A stretch of 64,000 nt of DNA from Chloroflexota bacterium. Its GTDB lineage: Bacteria; Chloroflexota; Dormibacteria; Aeolococcales; Aeolococcaceae. The stretch covers positions 6,429-70,428 of the forward strand of contig VBIQ01000024.1 in assembly GCA_005880985.1 (NCBI GenBank). Reading direction: 5' to 3'. Shown here piece by piece: positions 4,604 to 34,935 of this stretch (position 1 is the stretch's first letter; each line of letters starts with the position of its first letter). The position numbers were made by a program, and so were the translations under genes. The notes beneath the pieces are model-generated. The model was not told the origin of the DNA, searched no databases, and saw only the letters and a program-made list of their open reading frames with translations.

Positions 4604-4736
4604 TGCAGCCCGCGGCACCTGGTCGACATGGCGCCGGCATCGCTCCCGTGCTTGCTTCGAGACTCGGCGCCTCCAGATCGCTTCGCATTCCGAACCTGAG
4701 ATCCCGTGTCTTACCGATCATGCTACCATCAGTAGG

Positions 4737-5362: not shown

Positions 5363-5428
5363 CAGGGTGGGTGAAAGCAGAGCGCTCAAGCGAGCCAGTG
5401 TGAACCGTCCCGTGCAATCTCGGCATCC

Positions 5429-6959: not shown

Positions 6960-7015
6960 ACGCGTGGCTTGCTCGGCGAGAGGAGTGACGTCGGTGTCAA
7001 GCCCTCTGAGGCGGG

Positions 7016-7306: not shown

Positions 7307-7313
7307 CGCCTTC

Positions 7314-8644: not shown

Positions 8645-8777
8645 GCGAGCGCCTCACAGCCTGGCCGACGCCACGAGAAGAGTATGCGTCGTGGAAGCCC
8701 CCGGTTGAGGTCATTGGGCACTGCCTCCGCGACCTTCCGGTTTGCACGAGCACGCGGTCGGGCTTACCGTGTAGATC

Positions 8778-9329: not shown

Positions 9330-9338
9330 CGGCGGACG

Positions 9339-10631: not shown

Positions 10632-12700
10632 GGCGCCGCCATCATCGACAGGGGTCGGTGCACTGTCAATTCAGTGCCGGGGCCGGTGCGGGTGGATGCG
10701 GTGGCGGCACTGTGCCGGTGGTCGGGCTGGACGACCCACGACGCGAGCTGGGTCCGGTTGTCGAGCCGGAGCTTCTGCAGGATGCGGCCCACGTGATGAT
10801 CGACGGTGCGATGGCTGATCGACAGCCGCGCCGCGATCGTCCGGTTGGTGAGGCCCTCGGCGACCAGGGCGCAGACCTCGAGCTCGCGCTCGCTCAGCGC
10901 CTCGCGCGACGCCGGGCGTCCACGCGCCAGGGACCGCTCGATCCGGGCCAGCTCGGCGAGGGCGCCGCAGGCGTGCGCCAGCTGTCGCGCTTCGGCCAGC
11001 GCGGAGGCCGCTGCGGTCGGACGTCCGTTGGCGTCAGAGGCGACGCTGAGGACCCGCAGGGACCGAACGCGCTCCAGGGGGGACACGAGCCGCTGTGCGA
11101 TCGCCTGTTCGGCGGCGTGCAACCCCCCTGCCGTGTCACGCAGCGCCATGCACACCAGTGCGCGCGAGCGGGCGCGAAGTTCCACGGTGAGCGGTGCCGT
11201 CGTACCGGCGGTGAGCGCGTCCAGCCGTTCGACGGCAGCGGTCGCGTTGCCCACCTGCCCTCGGACAAGCTCGGTCTCGACAACGTCGGGAAGCATCGCC
11301 GTCTCGCCGGCAACCGAGCGACACCCTGCCTGGGCGCGGACGGCCCAGGACAGCCACCGGGCGGCGGCGTCGGGACTGCCGCTGTTGGCCAGCGCCCGAC
11401 CCGCCGCCCACGCCGACCACGCCGCGGGGCGAAGTCCCAGCGCCTGCCGGTCGAGGGCGAGCAGCGCGCCGACGACGCGCCGGATGGCCGGCTGGTCGGC
11501 CCGGTCCGCGGCGACCAGGGCTTCCAGGCCCAAGCGGTATGGCGCTGCTGCCGGGAGCACGCGGTCGATGTCGGCGCACGCCGCCAGCAGCGCGGTGCAC
11601 TCCTCGAGCTCTCCGGTCCGCCACCGGCACCACGCCAGGGTGAGAGCCGCGCGCATGTGCGCCGGTCCCGGTGGCTGGCCGTCGAGCGAACGCATCCCGG
11701 CGAGCGCTCGGGTCGTGGCGCCGTCCGCGTCTCCCGCGAGCAGGAGTGCCTGGGCGAGCGCCGGCATCACGTCCGGCACTCGACGCCCGGACATGGCTGC
11801 CTCGGCGCGCTCGATGTGCCGCTCGACCTGCGGTGCATCACCGAGTTCGGCGACCGCGACCGCCGCCAGCGCCTGCGCGTGAGCGGCGGCGCCGGCGTCC
11901 CGGATCGTGGCGGCCGCGGCCAGCGCCTCGCCGGCCAGGTGCAGCGCGCTCGAGGGCGACCCGGATTCGAGAACGCTCCACCCGCGCAGTACGGTGATCC
12001 GGCATTCCCGAGGCTGGTCGCGGCGGGAGGCGCCGTCCGTGCCCGTGGTGGGACGGAAATCACCGGTGGGGATACGCACGCTGCGCAGCGCCTGCTCGAG
12101 GCGGACGCGGTCGTAGCGCGTCCGGTGTCGCGGCGCCAGCTCGTCGGCGAGTGCGGCCAGTACGCCGGGGGTGCCGTTTGCTGACCGCACCAGATGCTCG
12201 ACGAGCGCAGGGCTCAAACGCAGTGCGGTACCGGCCCGCTGCTCGAGCATGGCGATCGAGTCGTCGACGTCGAGGTGGCGCAGTAGCAACCGGCGTCCCG
12301 TGCCCTCGTCGATGCATCGGCGGAGGGGAGCGAGCACACCATTCTGTCCGCGCCCAGGCGGGGTTGTGCACGAGGCGACCAGCAGGACCCACGGGGGACT
12401 GATGGCGTTCGCTGCGAGAATGGTGACGAGCCTGGCGTCCAGGCGGTCGGCGTCGTCGGCGAGGACGACCAGCCGGCGGGAGACCCCGGCCGCGCCATCG
12501 AGGCGCGCCTGCAGGTCACCAGCGGTGACGCCATCGTTGGTCAGGTCCAGCACCTCGAGACCTTGAGCGGTGGCGGCCGCGGCCAGCCATCGCACCAGCG
12601 CCGTCCGCCCGCTGCCGGGGCCGCCCTCGATGAGCGCCGTCGAGGGACCGGCGCCGGAGAGCGCGGCGAGCAGCAGCGACTGCTCGTCTGAACGTCCCAC
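10628..12700 (-). CDS. LAL-family transcriptional regulator (N-terminal AAA/STAND ATPase, TPR-like middle, C-terminal LuxR HTH)
   Basis: The P-loop GGPGSGRTAL is near the N-terminus and the C-terminal LuxR box is ELEVCALVAEGLTNRTIAARLSISHRTVDHHVGRILQKL. The start is set at the GTG/TTG near Val171 of track ORF 10628..13210. The upstream 170 codons are Arg/Ser-rich and overlap the divergent gene. Confidence 0.75.
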   Translation of the reverse strand: MGRSDEQSLLLAALSGAGPSTALIEGGPGSGRTALVRWLAAAATAQGLEVLDLTNDGVTAGDLQARLDGAAGVSRRLVVLADDADRLDARLVTILAANAISPPWVLLVASCTTPPGRGQNGVLAPLRRCIDEGTGRRLLLRHLDVDDSIAMLEQRAGTALRLSPALVEHLVRSANGTPGVLAALADELAPRHRTRYDRVRLEQALRSVRIPTGDFRPTTGTDGASRRDQPRECRITVLRGWSVLESGSPSSALHLAGEALAAAATIRDAGAAAHAQALAAVAVAELGDAPQVERHIERAEAAMSGRRVPDVMPALAQALLLAGDADGATTRALAGMRSLDGQPPGPAHMRAALTLAWCRWRTGELEECTALLAACADIDRVLPAAAPYRLGLEALVAADRADQPAIRRVVGALLALDRQALGLRPAAWSAWAAGRALANSGSPDAAARWLSWAVRAQAGCRSVAGETAMLPDVVETELVRGQVGNATAAVERLDALTAGTTAPLTVELRARSRALVCMALRDTAGGLHAAEQAIAQRLVSPLERVRSLRVLSVASDANGRPTAAASALAEARQLAHACGALAELARIERSLARGRPASREALSERELEVCALVAEGLTNRTIAARLSISHRTVDHHVGRILQKLRLDNRTQLASWVVQPDHRHSAATASTRTGPGTELTVHRPLSMMAAP

Positions 12701-13025
12701 CAAGACGTGGCCCCCGCTCGCCGCCCTGCCTGCGGCCCCCCTCGCAGTCGGCACCGACGAAGTATCGCACCGTCTGCGCCCGTGTACGTGCGACGGCAAT
12801 GGGCAATTTCGCCGATGCCGGTCCCCTGGGAACCGGCTGGCCGCCGGCGGGGCCGTGGCCGCCCAGATCAGGGCCAGGACCGGCGCGGGTATCGGACAGC
12901 GCCGATCGGTCTTTGTCCACGCAATAGGCCATCTCGCCGATGACACCTCTGGCCCGGCGGCAGAGACTGTCGGGCAGACGAGGTGGTCGGGCCGCTGTGG
13001 TCTGGACCGACGAGGGGGGACGACC
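12701..13025. promoter_or_regulatory. divergent intergenic/promoter region between the LAL regulator operon and the first Nif11-leader-like giant protein gene; RBS GAGGGGGGA about 9 nt upstream of the GTG at 13026
   Basis: 325-bp non-coding gap between divergent starts. The purine-rich Shine-Dalgarno element is the same one seen upstream of paralogs 4-6 (AAGAGGGGGxCxCATG). Confidence 0.4.
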
Positions 13026-16000
13026 GTGGCAGATGCGGCATTCCGCACCGTGGTGGCCCGCATGGCCGCCGACCCCGAGTTCGCGGCCCGAGTGCGCGGC
13101 GATGCGACCTCGGCTCTGGCGGAGTTCGACCTGACCGACGAGGAGCGCGCCCAGCTTGCGCTGCTCGAGTCCGACACCACCTCCTCCGCCGCCAATCTCG
13201 GACAACGCATCAGCAGGTCGTCGCTGTTCTTCGGCGGGTCCGGCGGCAGCGCGCCGCCGGGGACCGTGCCGCACGCCGCCGCCGAGGAGGCCGTGCAGGT
13301 GGCCCAGGCGGGCGATCAGCCGGTGGTCACCGTGCACGAGACGGCGGCGCACGCCATGGCGGCGTCGGGACAGGCGGATCCGACCCTGGCCTCGGCCGAC
13401 CTGGGGCAGGGCGGCCAGCCGAGCCTCGCCTCCGAGATCCAGCACGAGCACGACCTCGATCGGCAGATCGCCGAGTTGCGCATCGAGCGCGATCTGCTCG
13501 ATGCCCGGATCACCGAGCAGACCCTCGCCGGTGGCGGCGATCCCGGGCTCACGTCTCCGGGTGACGGAGGGGCGATGGTTCCGGGCGGTCTGGGGCACGG
13601 CGTGCCCGGTGGTGTCGGCGGGTCGCCGCTCGAGGCGATCCCGTCGCTCGGTCACCCGCACCCCGGCGCACCCCACGGCGGCATGCCTCCCGGGGCGGTG
13701 GCGCATGCGGAAGCGCGCCATCCCGGCGCCCCGGCGGGGCACGCGGGTGGCGGCGTCCCCGGGGCACCGGCGGTGCATCCGGGAGGTGGCAGTCAACCAG
13801 GGGTCCAGGCGCCCGGTGCAGGGGCGGGTTCGGCCGCAACCCCGCACGGCGCCGGAGCGCCGCCGGTGCCTCCCTGGGCGCACCCCGGCGCGATCGCCGC
13901 CGCCGCGCACCCCGGCTCGGCGGCCGCGCCACCGTCGCCGGCGGGGCATGGGCAGCATTCGTTCGGCGGTGGCGCGGTGCGCCCGGGTGCCGGCGCCGGC
14001 GCCGCGACCGCTCCGCATGCGCCCGGCACAACGCAACACCCGGGTGCCGGTGCGGGCACCGCGAGCGCGCCGCATCCGCAGACGGCGGCGCCCGTCCCCG
14101 ACAGCGTCTCGCACTTCGCGCGGTCGGTCCAGGACTACGTGCACCGAACCCACCATCAGCCGAGCGAGGAGTGGTACACGTATCTGCGCCAGCACGGCGC
14201 GCCGCCCGCCGATGACAACTACGGGCCCCCCCCCGTGCATCCCGGGTTCACCGCCCCACGCCCCGGGACGCCCTTCGGACCGTCACCCGCGGCTCCCACC
14301 GTCTCGCCCCAGGACGCGCAGCTGCTACCGCACACCGGCGACCCGGTGGTCGACGCCGCCAACCAGCACATCCTCGCGGACTACCTGCAGCACTACCACC
14401 ACCGGCCGACCGATGCGTGGTTGGCGTACTTCCGCGATTTCGGTCATCCGCCCAAGGACGACCTCTTCGGCATGCCTGGGCACCCTCACCCTGACGGGCC
14501 TCCGGCGGTCGGCCTCAAGCCAAAGCCCGACACGACGACCACCACGTCCAAGCCACCCAAGCCCGGCACCACGACCGGAGGCGGTGGCGGTGGTGGCCGT
14601 CCCAGCGGCGGCGGTGGCGCCGGCGCAAGTGGTGGCCATCCCGGCGGAGGAAGTGGTGGTGGTGGGCAGCCAGCCGGTGGCGGCGGTGGGGGAGGTCACG
14701 GCGGTCACAGTGGTCCCACCCAGCCCGGCGGCAGGGGTGCCAACCCTGATCCGTGGGGAAGCATGGGCGTGCAGGACCCGGGACAGTGGCAGGAGCCGCA
14801 CCCCGGTCCGCATCCGCCGCACCCCGGTGACGGGACGGGCGACCACGGCAAACACGTGCCACCGACGCCCGACTCCACGCACGATCACCTGGGACCTCAC
14901 GGTGAGCTGATCAAGGCCGACGGCAGCCCCATCCTGGGACCACATGGCGAGCTGCTCGGCGCCGACCACAAGCCCATTCTCGGCACCAGTGGCGAACTTC
15001 TCGGACCAGGGATGCAGGGGGTGTTGGGGCCCCACGGCGAAATCGTCGGTCCCGACGGCAAGCCTATCCTGGGCGAGAACGGCGAGATCCTGGGGCGCGA
15101 CGGCTCGCCGCTCACCGGCCCGCACGACGAGATCCTCGGCCCGAATGGAAAGCCGATCCTCGGTGATCACGGCGAGATCCTCGACTTCCACAGCGACCCG
15201 ATCACCGGGCCCCACGACGAGATTCTCGGCCCCGATGGCAAGCCGATCCTCGGAGCCCATGGCGAGATCCTCGACGTCGACGGCAAGTCGATGGTGGGCA
15301 GCAGCGGCGAGATCCTCGGCCCCGACGGGAACCCCGCGCTCGGCCAGCACGGCGAGATCATCCATCCCGACGGATCGCCCTTCCTCGGCAATCTCGGCGA
15401 GCTGCAGGGACCCAACGGCATCCCCGCGCACGGGTCGCACGGGGAGATCCTCGGCCCCGACGGTACGCCGCTCCTTGGGGCGAACAACGAGCTGCTCCGT
15501 CCCGACGGGGATTCGCTCACCGGCGCTCACGGCGAGATCCTCGGTCGCGACGGCACGCCGATCACCGGGTCGCACGGCGAGATCCTCGACCCCGACATGC
15601 ACCAGCTCACCGGTGGGCATGGCGAGATCCTCGGTCCCGACGGCACTCCGGTTTTGGGCAGCAATGGCGAGATCCTGAACACCGACGGCAACGCGATCCT
15701 CGGCAACAATGCCGAGCTGCTCAAGCCCGACGGCACCCCGGTGACCGGTCCGCACGGCGAGGTCCTGGGCGATGGCGGGGCGCCCCTATTGGGTCCCGAC
15801 CACGAACTGCAGGACGCGAACTTCGCACCGATTCTCGGTTCCCATGGGGAGATCCTGGGGGGCGACGGCATGCCGGTGTTGGGCGGCAACGGCGAGCTGA
15901 TGGGCCCCGGCGGACAGCAGATCCTGGGCTCTCATGGCGAGATCCTCGACAGCGGTGGGAAACCGATCCTGGGTCTGAACGGCGAGATCCTCGACACCAA

Positions 16001-16730
16001 TGGCAATCCGATCACCGACTCCAACGGCAACCCGATGGGCGAGAACGGCCAACCGATCGGCGCCAGCACTGGACAAGACGCGTCACAGCAGACAACGAGC
16101 ACGACCGCGGATGGATCGCAACCGACTGCCACGGCCACGTCGGCCGATGCGTCGCAGCAGACCACGGCGACGTCAGACACCACTCAGCAGACGGCGACTG
16201 ATCCGACACAGCAGGCGGCGGCTCAGGCGGCAGTAGATCAAGCGGCCCAGCAGGCGACAGCCGACCAGGCGGCGCAACCGGCGGCCGACCAGGCGGCGCA
16301 GCAGGCGGCGGCGCAAGCGGCAGCGGACCAGGCGGCGCAGCAGGCGGCGGCGCAAGCGGCAGCCGACCAGGCGGCGCAGCAGGCGGCGGCGCAAGCGGCA
16401 GCGGACCAGGCGGCGCAGCAGGCGGCGGCGCAGGCGGCAGCGGACCAGGCGGCGCAGCAGGCGGCGGCGCAGGCGGCAGCGGACCAGGCGGCGCAGCAGG
16501 CGGCGGCGCAGGCGGCAGCCGACCAGGCGGCGCAGCAGGCGGCGGCGCAAGCAGCAGCAGACCAGGCGGCGCAGCAAGCAGCGGCGGACCAGGCCGCGGC
16601 GCAAGCGGCAGCCGACCAGGCCGCGGCACAGGCGGCAGCAGACCAGGCCGCGGCACAGGCGGCAGCAGACCAGGCGGCTGCGGACGCCGCCGCCGCCGCG
16701 TCCGCGGCACCGTCGGACGGAAGCAGCTAA
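13026..16730 (+). CDS. giant acidic repeat protein with N-terminal Nif11/NHLP-type leader-like domain (paralog 1 of 6); His/Pro/Gly-rich region, ~30x 15-aa HGEILGPDGxPILG repeats, C-terminal 13-aa QAAAD repeats
   Basis: GTG start with RBS (Val153 of track ORF 12570..16730). The N-terminus VADAAFRTVVARMAADPEFAARVRGDATSALAEFDLTDEERAQL...GQRISRSSLFFGGSGGS is shared with 5 downstream paralogs. There is no hydrophobic signal peptide. Confidence 0.75.
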   Translation: MADAAFRTVVARMAADPEFAARVRGDATSALAEFDLTDEERAQLALLESDTTSSAANLGQRISRSSLFFGGSGGSAPPGTVPHAAAEEAVQVAQAGDQPVVTVHETAAHAMAASGQADPTLASADLGQGGQPSLASEIQHEHDLDRQIAELRIERDLLDARITEQTLAGGGDPGLTSPGDGGAMVPGGLGHGVPGGVGGSPLEAIPSLGHPHPGAPHGGMPPGAVAHAEARHPGAPAGHAGGGVPGAPAVHPGGGSQPGVQAPGAGAGSAATPHGAGAPPVPPWAHPGAIAAAAHPGSAAAPPSPAGHGQHSFGGGAVRPGAGAGAATAPHAPGTTQHPGAGAGTASAPHPQTAAPVPDSVSHFARSVQDYVHRTHHQPSEEWYTYLRQHGAPPADDNYGPPPVHPGFTAPRPGTPFGPSPAAPTVSPQDAQLLPHTGDPVVDAANQHILADYLQHYHHRPTDAWLAYFRDFGHPPKDDLFGMPGHPHPDGPPAVGLKPKPDTTTTTSKPPKPGTTTGGGGGGGRPSGGGGAGASGGHPGGGSGGGGQPAGGGGGGGHGGHSGPTQPGGRGANPDPWGSMGVQDPGQWQEPHPGPHPPHPGDGTGDHGKHVPPTPDSTHDHLGPHGELIKADGSPILGPHGELLGADHKPILGTSGELLGPGMQGVLGPHGEIVGPDGKPILGENGEILGRDGSPLTGPHDEILGPNGKPILGDHGEILDFHSDPITGPHDEILGPDGKPILGAHGEILDVDGKSMVGSSGEILGPDGNPALGQHGEIIHPDGSPFLGNLGELQGPNGIPAHGSHGEILGPDGTPLLGANNELLRPDGDSLTGAHGEILGRDGTPITGSHGEILDPDMHQLTGGHGEILGPDGTPVLGSNGEILNTDGNAILGNNAELLKPDGTPVTGPHGEVLGDGGAPLLGPDHELQDANFAPILGSHGEILGGDGMPVLGGNGELMGPGGQQILGSHGEILDSGGKPILGLNGEILDTNGNPITDSNGNPMGENGQPIGASTGQDASQQTTSTTADGSQPTATATSADASQQTTATSDTTQQTATDPTQQAAAQAAVDQAAQQATADQAAQPAADQAAQQAAAQAAADQAAQQAAAQAAADQAAQQAAAQAAADQAAQQAAAQAAADQAAQQAAAQAAADQAAQQAAAQAAADQAAQQAAAQAAADQAAQQAAADQAAAQAAADQAAAQAAADQAAAQAAADQAAADAAAAASAAPSDGSS
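14890..16070 (+). repeat. about 30 tandem 45-bp coding repeats (15-aa unit G-x-HGE-I/L-LGPDG-x-P-I/L-L)
   Basis: Direct reading of translation: LGPHGELIKADGSPILGPHGELLGADHKPILGTSGELLGPG...GSHGEILDSGGKPILGLNGEILDTNGNPI. Confidence 0.8.
16210..16700 (+). repeat. about 10 tandem near-identical 39-bp coding repeats (AAQQAAAQAAADQ)
   Basis: The DNA unit gaccaggcggcgcagcaggcggcggcgca(a/g)gcggcagc(g/c) recurs head-to-tail at the 3' end of paralog 1. Confidence 0.8.
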
Positions 16731-16760: not shown

Positions 16761-18521
16761 GTGCTCTGTCCACAGTGTCACATCCACACGGACCCGGACT
16801 TCCCCTACTGCCTGCGCTGCGGGCGTCAGCAGGGCAACGGTTCCCTGAGCGGCTGGGCCCCGCCCGAGTTGCACCCGGTGGAAGCACCCGCGGTCGCCTT
16901 CCCGCTGGTGAAGCGCTCGGTCTCGGTCGGACGCGATGACGCCAACGACATCGTCGTCGAGGACGGTCGGGCGTCACGTCAGCATGCCCGGGTGGTCCGC
17001 GACCAGCAGGGCTATCGCGTCGAGGATCTCGACTCCCTGAACGGCACCTGGGTGAACGACGAGGTGGTGCGCGACTCCGGCCGCCGCCTCAATGATGGAG
17101 ACCTCATCCGCCTCGGGGCAACGCAGCTGCGCTTCGAGCAGCCGCGCACCTCGACGGTGGGGGGTCGGACGGTCGTCGACCTGGCACGGACGACGATGGT
17201 GCAGACCAGCACCGGTGGCATCCGTGAAGGCGACTCGGATGCCGCCGCCGGACCGCCGCTCGACCGCAGGCCCCGGCGCCACTCCGGCTGGGAGCTGAAG
17301 CAGGTTGCATCGGCGCAGAGCGAGCCGCGCTACGTGCTCCGCAACGCGCGCACCGGCCAGTACCTCCAGCTCACCGATCGCGATGTCTTCCTCTGGAACC
17401 TGCTCGACGGGGAGCACACCATCCGCGACCTGCTGCTCGCCTACGCGCAGCAGTACGGGCAGCTGGCGCTCGCACGCATCCAGGGACTGATGTCGCAGCT
17501 CGACGGTGCCGGGCTGATCGCTGGATGGCGGACCGCTCCGCCCGCGCAGTCTCCGGTCAGCGGTCTCCGTCGCGCGGGTCGTGCCACGGTCAAGGCCCTG
17601 ACCCGGATGGAGCTGGCCGTCGGTGGCATCGACGGGTTCCTGGGCCGCTTGTACACGCGTGTCGGCTGGTGGTTCTTCAGCCGTGCCGGCCAGGTCGTCG
17701 TCTGGGGACTGGTCGTGGCCGGGATCGTGGCGTTCTCGGAGGTGCGCAAGAACCAGCGACCCTTCGAGATCGCCGGTGCGGGCATCTGGGGAGTCGTCGC
17801 CGCATTTGCCGGCTACGTTCTCGCACTCACCATCCACGAGCTCGCCCACGCGCTCGCGGTGAAGTCGTACGGTCGGAGGGTCCACCGGGGCGGCCTGATG
17901 GTGATGATGGCGATGCCCTACGCGTTCGTCGACACCAGCGACATGTGGTTCGAGTCACGACGCGCCCGGATCGCCGTCTCCGTGGCCGGCCCGGCGTCCA
18001 CCGCGATGCTCGGGGGGATCCTGTCGCTCGGTGCGGCCTTCCTGCCGGGAGCCATCGCACCCGGCATCTGCTTCCAGGTCGCCTTCGGCCTCTACATCAA
18101 CACCGTTTTCAACCTCAATCCGCTCATCCCGCTCGACGGGTACTACGTCCTCATCGACCTCCTCGATCGCCCCCGTCTCAAGGAGGAGGCGGGCGCCTAC
18201 TTCCGCAAGGGACTCTGGGCCGACCTCCGGCACGGACGTCTGCCCGGCGCCGGTCAGCTGGCCCTTGCCGTCTACGGGGGCATCTCCTTCATCTCCACCA
18301 TCGGGTTCCTGCTGCTCGGCGTCTATGTCTGGCGGACCAGGCTGAGCACCCCCATCCGTGACCACGTCCCCGCGCCCCTCGACCAGGTCATCGTCGTCCT
18401 CGGACTCATCCTGCTGTTCTTCCCCGTGTGGTATGGACCGCTGACCAAACTCTCGCGGGTGGTGCGCCGCCGGCTGGAGAAGCTGCAAACGCCGGTGCAA
18501 CCGCAGCAGGTGCCGGCATGA
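16761..18521 (+). CDS. zinc-ribbon / FHA-domain / M50 (site-2-protease-type) intramembrane metalloprotease fusion
   Basis: N-terminal CPQC...CLRC zinc ribbon. FHA domain (VSVGRDDANDIVVEDGRASRQHARVVRDQQGYRVEDLDSLNGTWVNDEVV...GDLIRLGATQLRF). A polytopic membrane region follows, with the HExxH motif (IHELAHALAV) and the M50 NxxPxxxLDG motif (NLNPLIPLDGYYVL). Confidence 0.8.
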   Translation: MLCPQCHIHTDPDFPYCLRCGRQQGNGSLSGWAPPELHPVEAPAVAFPLVKRSVSVGRDDANDIVVEDGRASRQHARVVRDQQGYRVEDLDSLNGTWVNDEVVRDSGRRLNDGDLIRLGATQLRFEQPRTSTVGGRTVVDLARTTMVQTSTGGIREGDSDAAAGPPLDRRPRRHSGWELKQVASAQSEPRYVLRNARTGQYLQLTDRDVFLWNLLDGEHTIRDLLLAYAQQYGQLALARIQGLMSQLDGAGLIAGWRTAPPAQSPVSGLRRAGRATVKALTRMELAVGGIDGFLGRLYTRVGWWFFSRAGQVVVWGLVVAGIVAFSEVRKNQRPFEIAGAGIWGVVAAFAGYVLALTIHELAHALAVKSYGRRVHRGGLMVMMAMPYAFVDTSDMWFESRRARIAVSVAGPASTAMLGGILSLGAAFLPGAIAPGICFQVAFGLYINTVFNLNPLIPLDGYYVLIDLLDRPRLKEEAGAYFRKGLWADLRHGRLPGAGQLALAVYGGISFISTIGFLLLGVYVWRTRLSTPIRDHVPAPLDQVIVVLGLILLFFPVWYGPLTKLSRVVRRRLEKLQTPVQPQQVPA

Positions 18522-20176
18522 CCGCGACAGCCGTCGGTCCCTTCACGGTCGTCGCCGAGCTCGGCGGGGGGCGCCTTGGTCCGCTCTTCCTCGGCCGCCA
18601 CAGCACGTCAGGTGAGGCAGTCTGTCTGCGTCAGCTGGACCCGGCCTTGCTCGCACATCCGGAAGCCCGCGAGGCGGTCGTCCGTGCGGTGCGTCGCATC
18701 GCGACCACCGAGGCTCCGGGCGTCATCCGAGTCATCGATCTGCTCGAGTCGGGCAACCAGTGGTACCTGGTCAGCGCCCACGTCCCGGGCCCGACGCTGC
18801 GAGACCTGCTCGATCGGTCCCAGGCGCCACGCCTGCACGGCTTCATCGGCGATCCCAGCGCCGCCGCGGTGGTCCTCGGCGACGTCGGCCGAGCCTGCCT
18901 TGCCCTCCACGGTGCCGGCGTGGCTCACGGATCCCTGGGGCCGGCCTCGATCCTCTGCTCCGTCGACGGGGTCGCCCGTCTCGCCGACCCTGCGCTGCTG
19001 GCGATCACCACCGGCACCGCGACCGGGCCAGCCGCGGATGCACGCAGCTGGGGCGACCTCGCTCTTGTCCTGCGGCGGGCCTGGGTTCCGGCCAGAGAGG
19101 GCAGCAACTTCGACCGCGCCGCAGACCGGGCCGAGGCGGGAGACCTCCGGGCCGCAGTCGACACGCTCGACGGTCGCGAGCAGGGGGCGCGAGCGCGACT
19201 CGCCGTGGCGGCATCCGCGTGGGAGGCGACACGCTCGGCCTCGCCGGCGCCGTCCGCCTCGGCGGCAGTTCCCCTGTCCGCGGCAACGTCCGGCTCGGAG
19301 CGACCGACACTGCTCGACATCCCCGGTGCGTCGAGCGCGGCCGACGGCGGTCGTGCAACCGTGATCGAGCCGCCGCCCGCACCGCGGCCGTCGGCAATCC
19401 CGCCACCGCAGCAGACGGTGATCGAACCGCCGGTTCCCGCGCTGCGCGCCTCCGCCAGCGAGACCGTCATCGATCGGCCGCCGCCGAGGGCGGACCCGGT
19501 TGCACCCGCGGCCGGTGCGACCGTCGTCGATCGGCCACCGCCGGTGCCGCCGACAGTGCCACCGCCGGCAGGGTCGCCGCATCGTCTCGGCGCGACCCGG
19601 GCGGCACCTGCCGTGGACCCGCCGCCCACCCGCGCTGCGGGCGGGGTCCGTCCCGGCTCGATGGGTGGCGATGGAAGCGGCACCGCATCCAGTTCCTTGC
19701 TGGTCAGCGACCTCGCCGGTGGCGGCGGACTCCAGCCGGCCTGGCCGGCACCCGCGCCGCGCAGGCGGGAGACGCGCTACCCGCTGCTCATCGGCGCCGC
19801 GGTCGCGGTCGCCGTCATCGTCATCGGTGGTGTCCTGCTGGGCGTCATCCTCCGCCACGGCCAATCGCTGCAGGCCACCGCCGCCCAGGTGCAGATCGCG
19901 ACGCCGCAGGTGGGCTGCAACAGCACCGTCGACGTGGTCGGAGTGATCGGCCTCAACGGCCAGGCGGGAACCGTGGACTACGAGTGGCAGCGCAACGACA
20001 GCACCTCCACCGGAGGCGTGCAGCATCAGACCGTCTCCAGCGGCCAGCAGCAACTGGTCGCGCACCTGTCGTGGTCGCTGTCCGGCCCTGGGACGTTCCA
20101 GGGTCTCGCCACGCTGATCGTCCGCAGTCCCAATGCCCTGGCGCCGGCGCAGGGCAGCTTCCGCTACGTGTGCTGA
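18518..20176 (+). CDS. membrane-anchored protein-kinase-like (probable pseudokinase) protein with TVIE/DPPP repeats and extracytoplasmic C-terminal domain
   Basis: ATG at 18518 overlaps the M50 gene stop (ATGA). The N-terminus has a kinase N-lobe-like fold (FTVVAELGGGRLGPLFLGRH...AVCLRQL...VIRVIDLLESGNQWYLVSAHVPGPTLRDLL). The HRD-region lacks catalytic Asp (GVAHGSLGPASIL) and there is no DFG. The repeats are 4x (T/Q)TV(I/V)(E/D)xPPP. A TM helix LLIGAAVAVAVIVIGGVLLGVIL is followed by a ~130-aa C-terminal domain. Confidence 0.6.
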   Translation: MTATAVGPFTVVAELGGGRLGPLFLGRHSTSGEAVCLRQLDPALLAHPEAREAVVRAVRRIATTEAPGVIRVIDLLESGNQWYLVSAHVPGPTLRDLLDRSQAPRLHGFIGDPSAAAVVLGDVGRACLALHGAGVAHGSLGPASILCSVDGVARLADPALLAITTGTATGPAADARSWGDLALVLRRAWVPAREGSNFDRAADRAEAGDLRAAVDTLDGREQGARARLAVAASAWEATRSASPAPSASAAVPLSAATSGSERPTLLDIPGASSAADGGRATVIEPPPAPRPSAIPPPQQTVIEPPVPALRASASETVIDRPPPRADPVAPAAGATVVDRPPPVPPTVPPPAGSPHRLGATRAAPAVDPPPTRAAGGVRPGSMGGDGSGTASSSLLVSDLAGGGGLQPAWPAPAPRRRETRYPLLIGAAVAVAVIVIGGVLLGVILRHGQSLQATAAQVQIATPQVGCNSTVDVVGVIGLNGQAGTVDYEWQRNDSTSTGGVQHQTVSSGQQQLVAHLSWSLSGPGTFQGLATLIVRSPNALAPAQGSFRYVC

Positions 20177-20189
20177 CGGAGTCGCATCG

Positions 20190-21164
20190 ATGTCGGAGCG
20201 AGTGCTGCGGGTGGTGGTCGAGCGGATGGCCGCCGACCGCGAGTTCTCCGCCCTGGTCAAGCAGGATCCCGAGAACGCGCTCGGCGACTACGACCTCACC
20301 GACGACGAGCGCGGCACCGTCCTCGGCCTCGGCGCCGACGCGACCGGCCGGGCGCATCGACTGGCGCCGCGGCTGACCAAATCATCGCTGGTCTTCGGCC
20401 ACCTCGGGAGAGGCGTCGACCATCTCGGGGCGGCGCACTCGACGGGAGGTCATGAGGCCCCTCTCGATGTGGGGACCCCGGTGCATGGCGCCGTGGATGT
20501 CGGGCTGACGCCGGCATCGGATGCCGACCAGGTCGGGACCTCGTTCACGCCGCACGGGTCGGGAGTCGACATCTTCGAGGGCGTCCCCGCCGGCTGGTCG
20601 CTCCCCGAGCCCGGCGCTCACGGGGATGCCGGGGTCGCCGGCCTCGGGGGCTCGCCGTGGGAGGCCAGCGCCGGAGTCGACACGGCGTCGATGCCTGCCG
20701 ATGCGGCGTCGCATAACCTTGCGTGGGACGCCATGCCGGCGCATGCAGTGGGCACCGGTGTCGCCACCGACCCCGGTGCGCTGAGCATCGGAGCTCACGG
20801 CGACGCGAGCGGTGGTTGGTCGCCGCCGGGTGGTGGAGGAGACGCGGCGGTCTGGCAGCTCCCCCAGCATGGCGATGGCACCGAGGCCGGGCTCGGCGGC
20901 GGTGGTGTTGCAGGGACCGGAGCGGTCGTGCTCGGTGGCCCCGGCGCCGACGTCGAGCGGATCCCCGGTCTCGGCGAGCTCTTCGCGTCCGGGACTGCTG
21001 TCGGCGAGCTCGCCGGTGGCGTGCCCGTCGATGTTCTCGACACATTCGGGAGCCTCGGCCACAGCGTCGTCGCCAGCATGACCACCGCGATCACCACCTC
21101 GGTCGGCGATGCGTTCTCGGTGGGTGCGGCGCCCATCCGGTACATCGAAGACATCAACTGGTAG
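20190..21164 (+). CDS. Gly/Ala/Asp-rich protein with N-terminal Nif11/NHLP-type leader-like domain (paralog 2 of 6, shortest, 324 aa)
   Basis: The N-terminus is MSERVLRVVVERMAADREFSALVKQDPENALGDYDLTDDERGTVLGL...RLTKSSLVFGHLG. ATG at 20190 (Met20 of track ORF 20133..21164). Confidence 0.7.
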   Translation: MSERVLRVVVERMAADREFSALVKQDPENALGDYDLTDDERGTVLGLGADATGRAHRLAPRLTKSSLVFGHLGRGVDHLGAAHSTGGHEAPLDVGTPVHGAVDVGLTPASDADQVGTSFTPHGSGVDIFEGVPAGWSLPEPGAHGDAGVAGLGGSPWEASAGVDTASMPADAASHNLAWDAMPAHAVGTGVATDPGALSIGAHGDASGGWSPPGGGGDAAVWQLPQHGDGTEAGLGGGGVAGTGAVVLGGPGADVERIPGLGELFASGTAVGELAGGVPVDVLDTFGSLGHSVVASMTTAITTSVGDAFSVGAAPIRYIEDINW

Positions 21165-21185: not shown

Positions 21186-24100
21186 ATGTCGAGAGACGCA
21201 CTGACCGAGGCGATCGCCAGGATGGCGACCGACGCAGACTTCGCGGAGCGCGTCCGCCATGATCCCGACGTCGCACTCTCCGACTACCCGCTGACCGCGG
21301 AGGAGCGCCGGAGCCTGGCGTCGATGAGCGCCGATGACGCCGGCGGCTCGTCGCCGCTGGGGCAGCGGTTGTCCAAGTCCAGCCTGTTCTTCGGCGCTGC
21401 CGCCGGTGGCGGCGGCGGAGCTGCTGCGCCGGCCGTCGACGATACGGGCTCGGGACGTCCCGACGCGGGCCACGGTGTGGTGCTCGCAGACACCTCGGGA
21501 TCTCCGGGGGGCACCGATGGTCACGGTCATGGTGACGGCGCAGTCGGCGACGGGTCTCACCCTACCGGGGCGCCGATGGATGCCGCCGGACATGCCACCT
21601 CGGTGACGATGGACCTGTACGGCCACCGGCCCCCCGAGGAGATCCCGCCACCGGCCGGCCCCACCGGTCATTCGGTCGCGGCCACCTACGACGCCGACCG
21701 GCACGTCTGGGTCGATGCCGCCACCGGCTCCACCTACGACCCGACCCGCGGCCTTTGGTGGGATCCCAACCGCAGTGTCCACTACGATCCGTGGCACGGG
21801 CTGATCACCGACACTCCGGTTGATTTCGACAAGTTCGTCCACTACGTTCCTGTGCCGCCGGATAGCGGGCCGCTCGGCTCCTCCGTCCACGCCGTCTGGA
21901 GTCCGCACGACGGCGTGTGGATCGACCCATTCACCAACGCCCAGTGGGATGCGGGCCACGGGACCTGGCATGCGCCCTACTCGTCCGACCCCTACCCGTC
22001 GGGGGGCGGAGGCACGCCCGATCCCAAGCCGGCGGCGCAAGATGCCGACGGCACGGTGCACCGCCCTGCGTGGGATCCGGTGCACGGGAGGTGGATCGAC
22101 TACGACCGCGGGACCACGTACAACCCGCAGACCGGCAGCTGGGACCAGGCATTCGAGCGGCCGCCGCTGGGTCCCGACGGGAAGGATGTATCGCCCACAT
22201 GGGCCAACGGTCACTGGACCGACCCGTCGACCGGTGCGCAATACGACTCCCGCTGGCACATCTGGACCAACCTTCCCGGCGGCCACACGTACGATCCGTG
22301 GACCGGCGACCGCGACGTCAGCTCGACGAGCGCTTCCTACTACAACAAGGACGTCCCGGCCACCGACCCCTTCGGGCGTCCGTTCCATCCGGTCTACGAC
22401 CAGGCGACCGGCGACTGGACGGATCCGGTCACCGGCGCCCATTACTCACCGAGCCACCAGTGGGTCTCACCCCTCGACTACCACCGCTTCACGCCCGGTG
22501 AGACGCCGCCCGGCGATCCGCCCGTCGATCCGCAGGGGAGGCACCCGGTGTGGGAGCCGGGGCGAGGTGGTTGGGTTCTGCCGCAGAGCGGTCAGACCTG
22601 GGACCCGGACACCGGGTCGTGGAGCGTGCCGACTCTCGACGCGCCGCCCGCCGGGCCCCACGGCGAGTCCATCGATGCGAGGTGGGACCAGGCGCGAGGC
22701 GTGTTCGTCGACCCGTCGAGCGGTGCGACCTACGATCCGAAGACCGGCGTCTGGGCCGATCCCGGCGGTCAGCGCTGGTACGACCCGTGGAGCGGTAAGA
22801 GCGCCGACCACGCCATCAACGCGGATCCGGCCGACGTGCAGGCGCGGATGCAGGCACCGAATGCCGGTCCTTTCGGCGGTTCGGTCTACCCCAACTGGGA
22901 CCCGGCGACGCACCAGTGGATCGATCCGACGACCGGTGCGCACTGGAACGGTTCCGACTGGGTTGTGCCCGGCAGCGGTCACGTGTACTCCTCCGACGAC
23001 GCGCAGCCGACGAGCGACCCGCCGACGCCGCGCTCGGTCTGGGATCCGTCGACCCAGTCGTGGGTCGAGCCGGTGAGCCAGGTGCCGCCGCCCGATGGTC
23101 CGGCGGGCCCACAGCCCGTGGTCGATGATCCCCACCCGACTGTCACGCTTGGTCCGACCGATACGTACCATTACATCGGCGACGACGGACAGATCCACGT
23201 GCACATCGGAGTCGATGTCAACGATCCGTCGACGTGGCCGCATGGGTGGTGGCCCCCGGGCGTGGATGTCGGCGACTCCTCGACGTGGCCGCAGGGCTGG
23301 GCGCCGCCCGACTCAGCGCAGTCGAGCCTCGATCCCAATGGAATCGAAGGCAGGACTGGCGCGTGGCTCGATGCTCAGGGCAACCTCCACACCTTCGCCG
23401 ACAACCTCGACCCCACCAATCCACACACGTGGCCGTGGGTGCACGCGGACGATCCGACAACATGGCCGCGCGGTTGGATGCCGGAGCAGCCGACCGGCCC
23501 GCACGACCAGACCGTGCCGGACATCCCGACTGATGTTGTCGTGCCGACGTTCGGCGACCCGATGCCAGGTCCGTTCGGCGACTCCATCACACCGATGTGG
23601 GATGACGCGACAGGTCAGTGGGTGGATCCCTACACCGGTGCGCACTTCGATGGCAGCAACTGGACGACGCCGAGCGGCTACGTGCTCACACCCGCGGATG
23701 CGCCGCCGACGCTCAAGCCGTTCACCGGCGACGCGGTGTGGGACCCCCAGCAGCAGGCCTGGGTCGATCCCCGGACCGGGGATCCCCTGCCGCCCGCTCC
23801 AGAGGATGCCGTGATACTGGGCATGGATCAGCCGAGCGGTCTCACGGTCACGCCGCCGTCGGGCCAGGACTGGACCAGCCTGCTTCCGGCACCCGACACG
23901 GCGCCCGGCGGCGATGGCGGAACGTGGCAGAGCCTCCTTGGTCCGGATGGATCGTCGACAGAGACGCCGCCGGTGGACCAGACGCCGCTGGACCAGACGC
24001 CGCTGGATCAGACGCCGCTGGTGGACCAGCCGCAATCCGACCAGCCGCCGCTGGACCAGACGCAATCCGACCAGCCGCCGGTGGACCAGACGCAATCCGA

Positions 24101-24254
24101 CCAGCCGCCGCTGGACCAGACGCAATCCGACCAGCCGCCGCTGGACCAGACGCCGCCGGTGGACCAGACGCAATCCGACCAGCCGCCGGCCGATCAGCAG
24201 ACCACAGACGAGTCACCGTCCGACCAGCAACCGGTCACGCAGTCGGCGAGCTGA
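21186..24254 (+). CDS. giant acidic repeat protein with N-terminal Nif11/NHLP-type leader-like domain (paralog 3 of 6); multiple W-x-DP-x-TG-x-x-YD aromatic repeats; C-terminal PLDQT(Q)SDQP decapeptide repeats
   Basis: The N-terminus is MSRDALTEAIARMATDADFAERVRHDPDVALSDYPLTAEERRSLASM...GQRLSKSSLFFGAAAGGGGG, with RBS GGGGGAA upstream. 1022 aa, no signal peptide. Confidence 0.8.
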   Translation: MSRDALTEAIARMATDADFAERVRHDPDVALSDYPLTAEERRSLASMSADDAGGSSPLGQRLSKSSLFFGAAAGGGGGAAAPAVDDTGSGRPDAGHGVVLADTSGSPGGTDGHGHGDGAVGDGSHPTGAPMDAAGHATSVTMDLYGHRPPEEIPPPAGPTGHSVAATYDADRHVWVDAATGSTYDPTRGLWWDPNRSVHYDPWHGLITDTPVDFDKFVHYVPVPPDSGPLGSSVHAVWSPHDGVWIDPFTNAQWDAGHGTWHAPYSSDPYPSGGGGTPDPKPAAQDADGTVHRPAWDPVHGRWIDYDRGTTYNPQTGSWDQAFERPPLGPDGKDVSPTWANGHWTDPSTGAQYDSRWHIWTNLPGGHTYDPWTGDRDVSSTSASYYNKDVPATDPFGRPFHPVYDQATGDWTDPVTGAHYSPSHQWVSPLDYHRFTPGETPPGDPPVDPQGRHPVWEPGRGGWVLPQSGQTWDPDTGSWSVPTLDAPPAGPHGESIDARWDQARGVFVDPSSGATYDPKTGVWADPGGQRWYDPWSGKSADHAINADPADVQARMQAPNAGPFGGSVYPNWDPATHQWIDPTTGAHWNGSDWVVPGSGHVYSSDDAQPTSDPPTPRSVWDPSTQSWVEPVSQVPPPDGPAGPQPVVDDPHPTVTLGPTDTYHYIGDDGQIHVHIGVDVNDPSTWPHGWWPPGVDVGDSSTWPQGWAPPDSAQSSLDPNGIEGRTGAWLDAQGNLHTFADNLDPTNPHTWPWVHADDPTTWPRGWMPEQPTGPHDQTVPDIPTDVVVPTFGDPMPGPFGDSITPMWDDATGQWVDPYTGAHFDGSNWTTPSGYVLTPADAPPTLKPFTGDAVWDPQQQAWVDPRTGDPLPPAPEDAVILGMDQPSGLTVTPPSGQDWTSLLPAPDTAPGGDGGTWQSLLGPDGSSTETPPVDQTPLDQTPLDQTPLVDQPQSDQPPLDQTQSDQPPVDQTQSDQPPLDQTQSDQPPLDQTPPVDQTQSDQPPADQQTTDESPSDQQPVTQSAS
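23965..24200 (+). repeat. tandem 30-bp coding repeats (PLDQTQSDQP and variants), about 7 copies
   Basis: Direct reading: TPLDQTPLDQTPLVDQPQSDQPPLDQTQSDQPPVDQTQSDQPPLDQTQSDQPPLDQTPPVDQTQSDQPP. Confidence 0.75.
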
Positions 24255-24291: not shown

Positions 24292-26520
24292 ATGTCGAAT
24301 CGAGGCTTGACTGATGCCCTCGCCCGGATGGCCTCAGACGACGCCTTCGTGCAGGCGGTGCGAACAAACGCAGAGGAGGCCCTGGCCGGGTACGAGCTCA
24401 CCGACGATGAGCGGCGCTCTCTCGCCGCGGTGAGGACGGAGGCGGCGGGTCGCGGGCCGTCGTCGTTGGGCCAGCGCCTGTCGAAGTCCGGCCTGTTCGG
24501 GATGAGCGGTGGCGGGGGAGGGACTGAGGCACTGCCCGCGCCGCCCGATTCCCTCGAGGCGGATGGCCAACTGGGCGGCGACCTCGCCCCGCCGCCAGAC
24601 ATCGCGGTCGATCAGATGCCAGACCAATCCGACGGTCCGTGGCAGAGCCTGCTTGCCGCCGGCACGGAGATGGACACCACCGTGGTCCAGCCCGTGGACG
24701 GAGGCGATCAGGGGATGGTCAACGTCTCATCGCCCGATGCGACGGCGACCGACCAGTCGATGGACGCGACCTCGACCGACACCACCGACAGGACGGCGAC
24801 TGATCAGCAGCTGTCGGGCGCTGCGCCTGACGGCCAGCCGACTGATCAGTCGCCCACCGACCAATCGCCCGTCCAGGCGGGATCGGATCCGGGGCAGGCA
24901 GCCGGGGCGCAGCCCACGACCGACGCAGCAGGTGCACCCGATGGTGCCCCGAACGCGCCGTCATACGGACCTGACGGCACGTGGATCCACGCCGAGTACG
25001 ACCCCCAGTCGGGTGAGTGGGTCGACCCGGTCACGGGCGCGCACTACAACGCAGCGACGCAGACCTGGTATGAGCAGGCGACTGGCCAGGCGTACCAACC
25101 GCCCGACACCGACCCTCCCACCTACGGTCCCGACGGTCGCTTCGCACACCCCCGGTATGACTTCGGACAGCACCAGTGGATCGATCAGGACACAGGGGCG
25201 CGTTACGACACCGCGAGTCAGCAGTGGCTCGACCCCACGACAGGGACGCCGCTGCAGGGACCGACAGGTGACCCACCAATGGGCGGACCGGACGGTCATC
25301 CGGTGCATCCGACGTACGACTTCGGCGCCAAGGCCTGGACCGATCCCGCCACCGGCGCGCTCTGGGACCCTGACAAGCAGGCGTGGGTCGACCCGTTCAG
25401 TGGCAACGCGTACCCGCCGGACTACAGCGGTCCCGCCTACGAACGGCCGACGAGCGATCCGTTCGGTACCGAGTATGCGGGCCTGCCGAACAATGTGACC
25501 TACGACCCCGCTCGCAACGCGTGGGTCGACCCGATGACCGGCGCGCTCTACGACCCCAACAACAACCAGTGGTACAGCCCGTGGGACCGGCATCCCTTCG
25601 AGCCGAGCGACCCGATGCCCTCGACCATGCCACCGGGTTTCGATCCCTTCGGTCAGCCCGTGCACGCCGTGTGGGACCCATCCGGCGACACTTGGGTCGA
25701 TCCCACAACGGGCGCGCGTTTCGACCAATCGACCGGGACGTGGTCGGACCCGCTGACCCAGCACGTGTACACCGGCGCTGAGCATCGCCCGCCGGCTCCG
25801 GTTGTGCTCCAGCCGCCAGACGAGTTGCGTCACGAATACGGCTCCCACGCCATCACCTTCGGTGGACCGCCCACGGCTGGTCCGCTGGGCGACGGCATTC
25901 CCGCGGCATGGGATCCCGTTCTCGGCCAGTACTACGACCCGACGACCGGCCTCCACTCCGTCAACGGAACCTGGTACTCGCCGGCCAGCGATCAACCGTC
26001 GGAAGCGACCTTCAGGCCGGGGATTTCACCGCCACCGGCCGAGCAACCCACCGACACCCCCAGCGGTTCACACGCGGTGTACGACCCGTACTCGCAGCAG
26101 TGGCGCGACCCGGTGACCAAAGCGTGGTACAGCGCGAAGGGAGACTTCTGGTTCGACCCGGCGCCCGGGCAGGTGCACGATGCGGGTGACTTCCGACCCA
26201 GCGCCCCGCCGCCGGACACCGGTCCGACGGGAGATCCGGTGAAGCCCACCTGGGACTTCCGCCACAACGAGTATGTCGATCCAGCCTCGGGCCGCGTCTA
26301 CTCGGCTGAGCGCGGCTTCTGGTATCGGGCGCTGCCCGCCTCCGACTCGCCGAACTGGGAGCACCCGGGCTCGCCGCCTCCGGCCAGCGGGCCGACGGGG
26401 AAAGCAACCGATCCCGTCTGGGATCGGGAGAACGCCGAGTGGCTCGATCAGTCGACTGGCGCCAGGTACGACCCTCTGCTGGGGACCTGGTCGCAGGGCG
26501 CAGGGGCTGGCGCCCCATGA
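24292..26520 (+). CDS. giant acidic repeat protein with N-terminal Nif11/NHLP-type leader-like domain (paralog 4 of 6); W-x-DP-x-TG-x-x-YD aromatic repeats
   Basis: ATG at 24292 is preceded by GAAGAGGGGGTCTC. The N-terminus is MSNRGLTDALARMASDDAFVQAVRTNAEEALAGYELTDDERRSLAAV...GQRLSKSGLFGMSGGGGG. The upstream part of track ORF 23914..26520 overlaps the paralog 3 3' end and is rejected. Confidence 0.8.
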   Translation: MSNRGLTDALARMASDDAFVQAVRTNAEEALAGYELTDDERRSLAAVRTEAAGRGPSSLGQRLSKSGLFGMSGGGGGTEALPAPPDSLEADGQLGGDLAPPPDIAVDQMPDQSDGPWQSLLAAGTEMDTTVVQPVDGGDQGMVNVSSPDATATDQSMDATSTDTTDRTATDQQLSGAAPDGQPTDQSPTDQSPVQAGSDPGQAAGAQPTTDAAGAPDGAPNAPSYGPDGTWIHAEYDPQSGEWVDPVTGAHYNAATQTWYEQATGQAYQPPDTDPPTYGPDGRFAHPRYDFGQHQWIDQDTGARYDTASQQWLDPTTGTPLQGPTGDPPMGGPDGHPVHPTYDFGAKAWTDPATGALWDPDKQAWVDPFSGNAYPPDYSGPAYERPTSDPFGTEYAGLPNNVTYDPARNAWVDPMTGALYDPNNNQWYSPWDRHPFEPSDPMPSTMPPGFDPFGQPVHAVWDPSGDTWVDPTTGARFDQSTGTWSDPLTQHVYTGAEHRPPAPVVLQPPDELRHEYGSHAITFGGPPTAGPLGDGIPAAWDPVLGQYYDPTTGLHSVNGTWYSPASDQPSEATFRPGISPPPAEQPTDTPSGSHAVYDPYSQQWRDPVTKAWYSAKGDFWFDPAPGQVHDAGDFRPSAPPPDTGPTGDPVKPTWDFRHNEYVDPASGRVYSAERGFWYRALPASDSPNWEHPGSPPPASGPTGKATDPVWDRENAEWLDQSTGARYDPLLGTWSQGAGAGAP

Positions 26521-34925: not shown

Positions 34926-34935
34926 CGAGTCGGTC

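Follow-up and report, generated by a model that had tools for sequence, protein, structure and literature searches.

A zinc ribbon-FHA-RRE-site-2 protease fusion encoded among leader-bearing proteins of a Chloroflexota bacterium: a candidate signal-gated leader peptidase

PqqD-like domains are recognition elements (RREs) of peptides that are made by the ribosome and modified after translation (RiPPs) and bind leader peptides. In MpaP (DapP), the intramembrane leader peptidase of daptide RiPP clusters, such an element is fused to the protease, whose proposed job is the removal of the leader (doi 10.1101/2023.03.08.531785). Here we describe a gene found in a stretch of 64,000 nucleotides from a Chloroflexota bacterium (contig VBIQ01000024.1, positions 6,429 to 70,428; hereafter the window, G+C 69-75%). 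This gene (16761-18521, + strand, GTG start) encodes a membrane protein of 586 aa in which a zinc ribbon, a forkhead-associated (FHA) domain, an RRE and a site-2 protease (S2P, family M50) core are joined. Since it is almost always encoded beside leader proteins and a kinase/pseudokinase pair, this protease is most likely an uncharacterised, signal-controlled leader peptidase.

Like MpaP, the protein has an RRE fused N-terminally to an S2P-like HExxH membrane protease and is encoded beside precursors with a conserved leader and a variable core. Unlike MpaP, it carries an added zinc ribbon and FHA domain, and its partners are a kinase and a pseudokinase instead of the daptide tailoring enzymes MpaB/C/D/M. 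The precursors also differ from those of daptides, having a leader assigned to the nitrile-hydratase/Nif11 leader (NHLP) clan, no C-terminal Thr and cores of up to thousands of residues. The best NCBIfam match of the protease is NF041824, the daptide intramembrane metalloprotease (residues 190-528, E 5.5e-39); with 134.4 bits against an equivalog cutoff of 300 bits, membership of this family was rejected. The daptide machinery (aminotransferase, iron alcohol dehydrogenase (Fe-ADH) and DUF-RRE set) was not found among the neighbours scanned, and a daptide context was rejected also because none of the six leader-bearing paralogs of the window ends in Thr, their C-terminal residues being S, W, S, P, P and R.

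Other S2P/zincin-like membrane metalloproteases proposed or shown to remove RiPP leaders are YydH/LiaK of the epipeptides and TmcP (DUF3267) of TMcin (PMC13252029). Unlike the protease of the window, they have neither FHA nor RRE, and TmcP is without transmembrane segments (TM) 5-6. Membership of the YydH/LiaK family (NF058609) was rejected on score (31.8 bits against a cutoff of 225) and on context. In Bacillus subtilis, the S2P SpoIVFB clips a short N-terminal pro-sequence from Pro-sigma-K (PMC11486902), which is cytoplasmic and has no membrane-spanning segment, and a signalling pathway gates this activity. SpoIVFB also has a cytoplasmic regulatory domain, and functionally it resembles the gated cleavage that we propose for our protein. 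It differs in its C-terminal CBS domain, its inhibitors BofA and SpoIVFA and its sigma-factor substrate, and in having neither FHA nor RRE.

A further likeness is to actinobacterial FHA domains that either form part of an effector protein or target one, and whose genes neighbour that of their Ser/Thr kinase. The ABC transporter Rv1747 of Mycobacterium tuberculosis bears two FHA domains at its N-terminus and is under the control of PknF, the kinase encoded next to it; in GarA/OdhI the FHA domain binds a phosphothreonine in the protein's own tail, a precedent for the role that we suggest below for Thr137. Unlike in those cases, the effector in the window is an intramembrane protease with an RRE rather than a transporter or an enzyme inhibitor, and phosphorylation is here a candidate event.

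Classical leaders of the NHLP/N11P type finish with Gly-Gly and are removed by ABC exporters that carry a C39 peptidase (PMC2887384). In Burkholderia, Haft et al. (2010, PMC2887384) noted precursors of NHLP type with a large Ser/Thr kinase beside them. The leader-bearing proteins of the window resemble NHLP/Nif11 precursors in their N-terminal 60-70 residues, which probably fall in the clan, in the long helical leader, in paralogous expansion and in hypervariable sequence past the leader. They differ in their RRE-S2P partner and in the fact that most cores are protein-sized and of low complexity. The classical NHLP/Nif11 system was not matched: the leaders end in RLSKSSLFFG followed by Gly-rich sequence, with no Gly-Gly end, and neither ABC_tran nor C39 was matched in the open reading frames (ORFs) of the window that were scanned (not every small ORF was).

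The literature on RRE/M50/FHA, NHLP/site-2 protease and forkhead-associated topics yielded no description of an FHA-RRE-S2P protein or cassette. The fusion had been called unusual in the initial annotation, and it is so solely in being uncharacterised, since a scan of one genome per species found a relative of the protease in 272 genomes, mainly those of Streptomyces, Catellatospora and Dormibacteria.

Domain architecture of the protease

A fusion of zinc ribbon, FHA domain and M50 protease had been read from the sequence of this gene. The ORF is exact, the motifs are present, and a Pfam search finds both the FHA and the M50 domain; that reading had missed the RRE (Pfam match at residues 191-253), and the confirmed order is zinc ribbon, FHA, RRE and S2P. 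Residue conservation was assessed in 91 full-length homologues of 45-62% identity, on which the AlphaFold2 model of the protease was also built (pLDDT 86.1, pTM 0.79). The model has a small N-terminal ribbon, an FHA sandwich (residues 36-126), a disordered segment (137-165), a module of three strands and three helices (177-249) and a helical membrane domain, in which residues 376-390 form a beta-hairpin. Homologues are labelled in databases as 'FHA domain-containing protein', 'PqqD family peptide modification chaperone' or 'putative peptide zinc metalloprotease', and a protein identical in sequence is encoded on three JGI soil-metagenome contigs.

The zinc ribbon (16761-16829, +; VLCPQCHIHTDPDFPYCLRCGRQ) has four Cys (C3, C6, C17 and C20), which in the translation form the motif CPQC...CLRC at residues 3-20. 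It was modelled with a pLDDT of about 90 and has no Pfam match at E<0.01; C20 is invariant and C17 at least 90% conserved. The FHA domain (16866-17138, +) matches Pfam FHA at residues 54-119 (E 1.3e-18) and combines the beta-sandwich with the conserved GR, SxxH and NG residues that are predicted to bind phosphothreonine. Its pocket is intact, G57, R58, S72, R73, H75 and N94 being invariant. The linker that follows (17139-17270, +) is disordered, with a pLDDT below 50 at residues 137-165. It contains an invariant Thr137 (nucleotides 17169-17171) within RTVVD, which is a candidate phospho-acceptor and a candidate ligand of the FHA domain.

The PqqD-like leader-peptide recognition domain occupies residues 177-253 (17289-17519, +) and shows the winged-helix RRE fold of three beta-strands followed by three helices; its Pfam score is 25.4 bits against a cutoff of 23.4. 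The transmembrane core of the S2P (17631-18488, +) matches Pfam Peptidase_M50 at residues 353-430 with 27.5 bits (cutoff 27.2), and its fold resembles those of MjS2P and RseP. In a profile search of the PDB the S2P match was marginal (E 0.06). The zinc-binding and catalytic motif HELAH (residues 359-363; 17835-17849, +) lies inside the helix 342-369 and supplies H359, E360 and H363. The third zinc ligand, D459, belongs to the motif NPLIPLDG (residues 453-460; 18117-18140, +), which in the translation extends to NLNPLIPLDG at residues 451-460. The active site is thus intact, as the first reading of an S2P/M50 core had it, and H359, E360, H363, P454, D459 and G460 are invariant among the homologues. 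This invariance of the catalytic residues and of NxxPxxxLDG indicates selection for catalysis.

The RRE-S2P part alone (residues 170-586) belongs to a much larger family: 8,483 cluster representatives match at E <= 1e-3, of which 454 reach E <= 1e-30. Ten of these relatives were sampled. P0299, P0301, P0303 and P0308 have no recognised extra domain; an FHA domain is present in P0300 and P0309, and P0297 is an HSP70-FHA fusion. Domains binding cyclic nucleotide monophosphates (cNMP) occur as an N-terminal pair in P0329 and P0347 and at the C-terminus in P0302. Their presence in the place of FHA makes the addition of signal-input domains a recurrent design, and suggests that signal-gated leader peptidases are a general, overlooked theme.

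Leader-bearing proteins beside the protease

Six proteins of the window, of 324-1463 aa, share an N-terminus of about 75 residues with the consensus ...ARMA.D..F...V......L..Y.LT.(D/E)E...L......LGQRLSKSSLF(F)G. Past this leader they continue with unrelated low-complexity sequence of 250-1390 residues, and neither a TM segment nor a signal peptide was found in any of the six. A leader hidden Markov model (HMM) was built from them. Paralog 1 (13026-16730, +; 1234 aa; leader HMM 90 bits; JGI gene call) has ...RISRSSLFFG before its low-complexity core, is rich in A, G and P, has no TM segment and stops 30 nt ahead of the protease start. The initial annotation had set the protease between paralogs 1 and 2; paralog 1 does precede it, but the next gene is that of a pseudokinase (18518-20176), and paralog 2 (20190-21164, +; 324 aa; 83 bits; NF038399 match) comes only after that. 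The array continues on the same strand with paralog 3 (21186-24254; 1022 aa; 89 bits), paralog 4 (24292-26520; 742 aa; 84 bits; gene call), paralog 5 (26543-28729; 728 aa; 84 bits) and paralog 6 (28840-33231; 1463 aa; 86 bits).

The cores contain long internal repeats. In that of paralog 1, GEILGPDGxP recurs about 35 times and there is a QAAADQAA array, those of paralogs 3-5 have OCRE-like W.DP.TG..YD repeats (with a Pfam OCRE match in paralog 3), and that of paralog 6 has PTDQQ and EAPTQ(S/T)YP(Q/K)G repeats.

From HMM matches around or below the cutoff, the leader probably belongs to the NHLP clan. Against NF038399 ('Os1348 family NHLP clan', cutoff 40 bits) the full-length paralogs scored 24.6-38.5 bits, the highest value being that of paralog 5, and the leader alone scored 40.7 bits in paralog 6 and 38.0 in paralog 3. 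PF14407 (Frankia_peptide) gave 15-17 bits against a cutoff of 48, and the NHase_alpha match was also weak. The assignment is made from HMMs only, because no significant match to the leader model came from Foldseek (SonA, a RiPP precursor, and DesB ranked highest, at E of about 1). AlphaFold2 modelled the leader of paralog 3 as a confident four-helix domain (residues 2-52) with a disordered tail that bears RLSKSSLFF, as is expected for a segment that would become ordered upon binding.

Gene order was compared in the 80 best loci, which are mostly from Streptomyces, Catellatospora, Hamadaea and other Actinomycetota, together with metagenome-assembled genomes (MAGs) of Dormibacteria/Chloroflexota. 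In 69 loci (Actinomycetota and Dormibacteria) the sequence extends for at least 1.5 kb upstream of the protease, and in 67 of these the leader HMM found a leader-bearing ORF adjoining it; in 65 this ORF lies directly upstream on the same strand, with a median gap of 12 nt, and in two directly downstream. This adjacency indirectly supports binding of the co-encoded leader by the RRE. Conservation across loci is limited to the leader, the cores ranging from about 30 to 2600 aa and being mutually unrelated; those of 200-2600 aa are lineage-specific, low-complexity sequence. A profile search also found short leader proteins of 99-136 aa, some with Cys-rich repeat cores.

The pair of leader protein and protease is kept in three loci where the kinases are absent (L002, L005 and L090). 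One of these, L090 (6859-10178), is a compact variant in which a precursor gene stands between those of a 336-aa P450 and the FHA-RRE-S2P protein. The precursor, of 136 aa, joins this leader to a core of five CNGH(A/V)G repeats, and the locus looks like a genuine small RiPP cluster.

Several leader proteins stand apart in size, place or annotation. In Actinomycetospora sp. CA-101289 (L071) the leader protein has about 2700 aa (1774-9900); a second protease-like ORF (12268-13776) follows the first, and the pseudokinase gene lies upstream of the giant gene. Catellatospora paridis has an orphan leader protein of 104 aa (L087, 8001-8315; RLSKSGIGSGGLAGLL..., ending in RPLGRWVGPG), distant from the cassette of the same species (L012); the protease may serve substrates encoded in trans. 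In Streptomyces sp. NBC_00203 (L083) the called gene (8604-9911, -) is on the wrong strand, the ORF at 8397-9992 (+) scoring 137 bits with the leader HMM, and the precursor genes of the cassette are probably often mis-annotated. With the protease labelled just 'FHA domain-containing protein' and the precursor gene at times placed on the opposite strand, the cassette will escape genome-mining tools.

Kinase, pseudokinase and the proposed control of cleavage

The membrane pseudokinase encoded directly after the protease (18518-20176, +; 552 aa) has a weak Pkinase match and is the orthologue of the second kinase-like gene of the actinobacterial cassettes. Its start overlaps the protease stop (ATGA), which indicates translational coupling. 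The protein consists of the kinase-like domain, a cytoplasmic linker, one TM (residues 427-445) and an extracellular C-terminal domain that contains Cys. As BLASTP did not align the kinase domains of kinase and pseudokinase, they were compared in a MAFFT alignment with their orthologues, in which the pseudokinase has VCLR for VAIK and HGS for HRD, the DFG/activation loop being deleted.

The active Ser/Thr kinase (35712-37376, -; VAIK, HRD and DFG present; one TM; Pfam Pkinase 152 bits) is the orthologue of the kinase that lies directly 3' of the protease in actinobacteria; in the window it is sited 17 kb away. It has 56% identity (tblastn, E 6e-87) to the cassette kinase of a Streptomyces locus (L064). 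The 3' third of its ORF is extremely Pro-rich and the ORF is overlapped by another (34936-36867, -) in a different frame, which leaves uncertain where the kinase truly ends and whether there is a frameshift.

In 73 of the 80 loci the protease is followed first by an active kinase (HRD and DFG) and next by a pseudokinase, and the pseudokinase of these loci is orthologous to that of the window. In an unbiased clustering of the neighbours in 13 sources from distant taxa, the protease and the kinases alone recur in most. The leader ORFs were clustered by BLAST in only three of the 13, and the leader HMM was needed to recognise them. No modifying enzyme, transporter or sigma/anti-sigma pair was conserved among these neighbours. 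Licensing of the protease by neighbouring kinases, as it was originally suggested, is consistent with this synteny, the evidence for it being of that kind only; the gene coupled to the protease in the window is that of the pseudokinase and not that of the active kinase.

Between residues 281 and 340, the linker of the pseudokinase has four repeats of the type T-V-[IV]-[DE]-(R)PP. Among 12 cassette proteins the motif T-V-[VI]-[DE] occurs only there (four times) and at Thr137 of the protease. These sites fit the pT-x-x-D/E type and are candidate phosphothreonine ligands of the FHA domain. Similar repeats, of the form GTPTV[FHI]D, are present in the pseudokinase that accompanies the closest homologue (L085, 3821-5584). 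The conserved L-T-D-D-E of the window leaders was rejected as an FHA ligand, the Thr being Ser in many Streptomyces leaders and fitting a helix N-cap.

Taken together, it is on balance probable that the protein is a signal-gated, leader-directed intramembrane metalloprotease; we infer from the sequences the leader proteins as its substrates, as well as the cleavage position, the phosphorylation sites and the direction of regulation. The cytoplasmic RRE would capture the conserved, putative NHLP-clan leader of the neighbouring proteins, six of which are encoded in the window, each presumably with a four-helix leader domain and a flexible tail that bears L..RLSKSSLFFG, and L..RLSKS, the most conserved element of the leader, would be the likeliest recognition sequence. 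The RRE would then feed the junction of leader and core into the membrane-embedded HExxH/LDG site, where the leader would be cut from the variable low-complexity core, presumably near the end of conservation, around SSLFF/G. The N-terminal FHA domain would make this cleavage depend on Thr phosphorylation by the membrane Ser/Thr kinase of the cassette, most likely by docking either on the co-translated pseudokinase, at phosphothreonines of its cytoplasmic linker, or on Thr137 of the protease itself; that is, the phosphorylated pseudokinase could act as a docking scaffold, or phospho-Thr137 could be bound in a GarA-like manner. The initial annotation had named the protein a candidate leader peptidase, a proposal that gains from the RRE between FHA domain and protease, from the RRE leader peptidase of the daptides as best NCBIfam match and from the adjacent leader ORFs.

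If this is correct, it would be, as far as the literature search shows, the first leader peptidase wired to Ser/Thr phospho-signalling, and an extracellular cue would govern maturation post-translationally, so that control would go beyond transcription alone. It would also stretch the RiPP concept, with one logic of leader, RRE and protease serving cores from about 30 residues (Cys-rich, with a P450) to disordered ones of more than 2,000. The RRE-directed S2P leader peptidase is a known type; the phospho-signalling layer and the unusually large disordered substrates are the predicted novelties. As the cassette is present in hundreds of Streptomyces and other tractable actinomycetes, the hypothesis is directly testable.

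A number of observations weigh against this proposal. Protein-sized disordered cores are atypical for RiPP logic, and with neither a TM nor a signal peptide in the leader proteins, and no exporter among the same scanned ORFs of the window, the fate of the cores after cleavage is unexplained. The leaders have no invariant Thr, which makes recognition of the substrate itself by the FHA domain unlikely, and the T-V-x-[DE] repeats are not conserved in the actinobacterial pseudokinases. The RLSKS motif occurs as well in Frankia_peptide proteins of 72 aa, two loci of which have no RRE-S2P gene within 8 kb, and so it is not specific to the protease. Moreover, three Dormibacteria-type loci (L001, L004 and L086) have the protease without an adjacent leader gene, and five loci of this type have no kinase within up to 10 kb on each side.

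The two Frankia_peptide loci just mentioned are from Chloroflexi MAGs (L088, 8001-8219, and L089, 4831-5049), where the PF14407 proteins ('Franean1_4349 family RiPP') carry ...LDARLSKS as in the window leaders. Their genes start 3 nt past a gene for a 1472-aa guanylate-cyclase/STAND/TPR protein and have no RiPP enzyme alongside; instead of natural-product precursors, this family may represent partners in signalling. No description of an FHA-RRE-S2P fusion was found in the literature on Franean1_4349.

The same cassette could also be viewed, with some reserve, as a transmembrane signalling device instead of a natural-product pathway. The kinase and pseudokinase would sense an extracellular cue and the phosphothreonine would recruit or release the protease for one irreversible cut, parting a small folded NHLP-like domain from a giant disordered protein and activating either of them. 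The product switched on would be, for example, a regulator, a condensate former or a matrix or coat precursor, and the six paralogs would be a battery of outputs.

We consider it unlikely that the system is one of classical regulated intramembrane proteolysis, in which the FHA domain would dock on phosphorylated linkers of kinase and pseudokinase and the S2P would cut their TM and free a cytoplasmic fragment, the leader proteins being RRE-bound regulators or adaptors. S2Ps prefer substrates with a single TM and a cytoplasmic N-terminus (RseP and RsiW-type systems), and this is the topology of kinase and pseudokinase, in both of which a single TM helix follows an N-terminal domain located in the cytoplasm. 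The translational coupling of the pseudokinase, its repeated candidate FHA-binding motifs and the conservation of the kinase pair in 73 of 80 loci would suit such a role. However, the linkage of precursor and protease is the more constant one, being kept in the three loci without kinases, no site-1 protease is conserved, and the RRE and the closest homology to a RiPP leader peptidase would be left unexplained.

A non-proteolytic chaperone or scaffold, which would keep leader precursors at the membrane, ready for export or for the action of other enzymes, and have an inactive or structural M50 core, is suggested by the name 'PqqD family peptide modification chaperone' that some sources give to homologues and by the marginal Pfam M50 score, but the invariance of H359, E360, H363, D459 and NxxPxxxLDG, and the lack of a modifying enzyme or transporter conserved in the cassette across taxa, make it very improbable. 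Finally, that this S2P serves housekeeping or the stress response in the manner of RseP/Rip1, with anti-sigma factors from elsewhere in the genome as its targets, and is only incidentally adjacent to leader genes, is hardly credible: the S2P fold and motifs are present and a LuxR-type regulator and a PrsW-family protease are encoded nearby in the window, but these two genes are not conserved in other loci, no adjacent sigma/anti-sigma pair is conserved, the protein has none of the PDZ or CBS domains of RseP and SpoIVFB, and a leader ORF that adjoins the protease in 65 loci of different phyla, with a median gap of 12 nt, is no coincidence.

Other genes of the window

Upstream of the cassette and diverging from it are two genes, one encoding a soluble FHA-domain protein of 430 aa (9339-10631, -; Pfam FHA) and the other the LuxR-type regulator, which has an AAA ATPase domain (10628-13210, -). 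A homologue of the soluble FHA protein is encoded beside the cassette of the closest relative (L085, 5575-6960), and this protein is possibly an accessory part of the system. The gene of the PrsW-family intramembrane protease (33255-35033, -; 592 aa, about 8 TM peaks) separates the array of leader proteins from the active kinase; its product may be a second protease particular to this lineage, or may be unrelated. Searches of the 80 loci by phmmer with the soluble FHA, LuxR and PrsW proteins and with three core regions found essentially no counterparts, so that none of these is a conserved part. The RibBA protein of the window (60430-61668) is identical to one annotated as belonging to a Chloroflexota MAG and has its nearest relatives in MAGs of the Candidatus Dormibacter type, which points to a Dormibacteria-like soil bacterium as the host.

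A T2SSE-type secretion ATPase is encoded near the protease in the window and in four Dormibacteria-type loci (for example L086, 5354-7480, and L004, 3957-6347). In the window this ATPase is accompanied by a weakly T2SSF-like neighbour (2457-3713, -, and 1525-3129, -), and the nearness to the protease may reflect a shared ancestry of gene order or a link to export.

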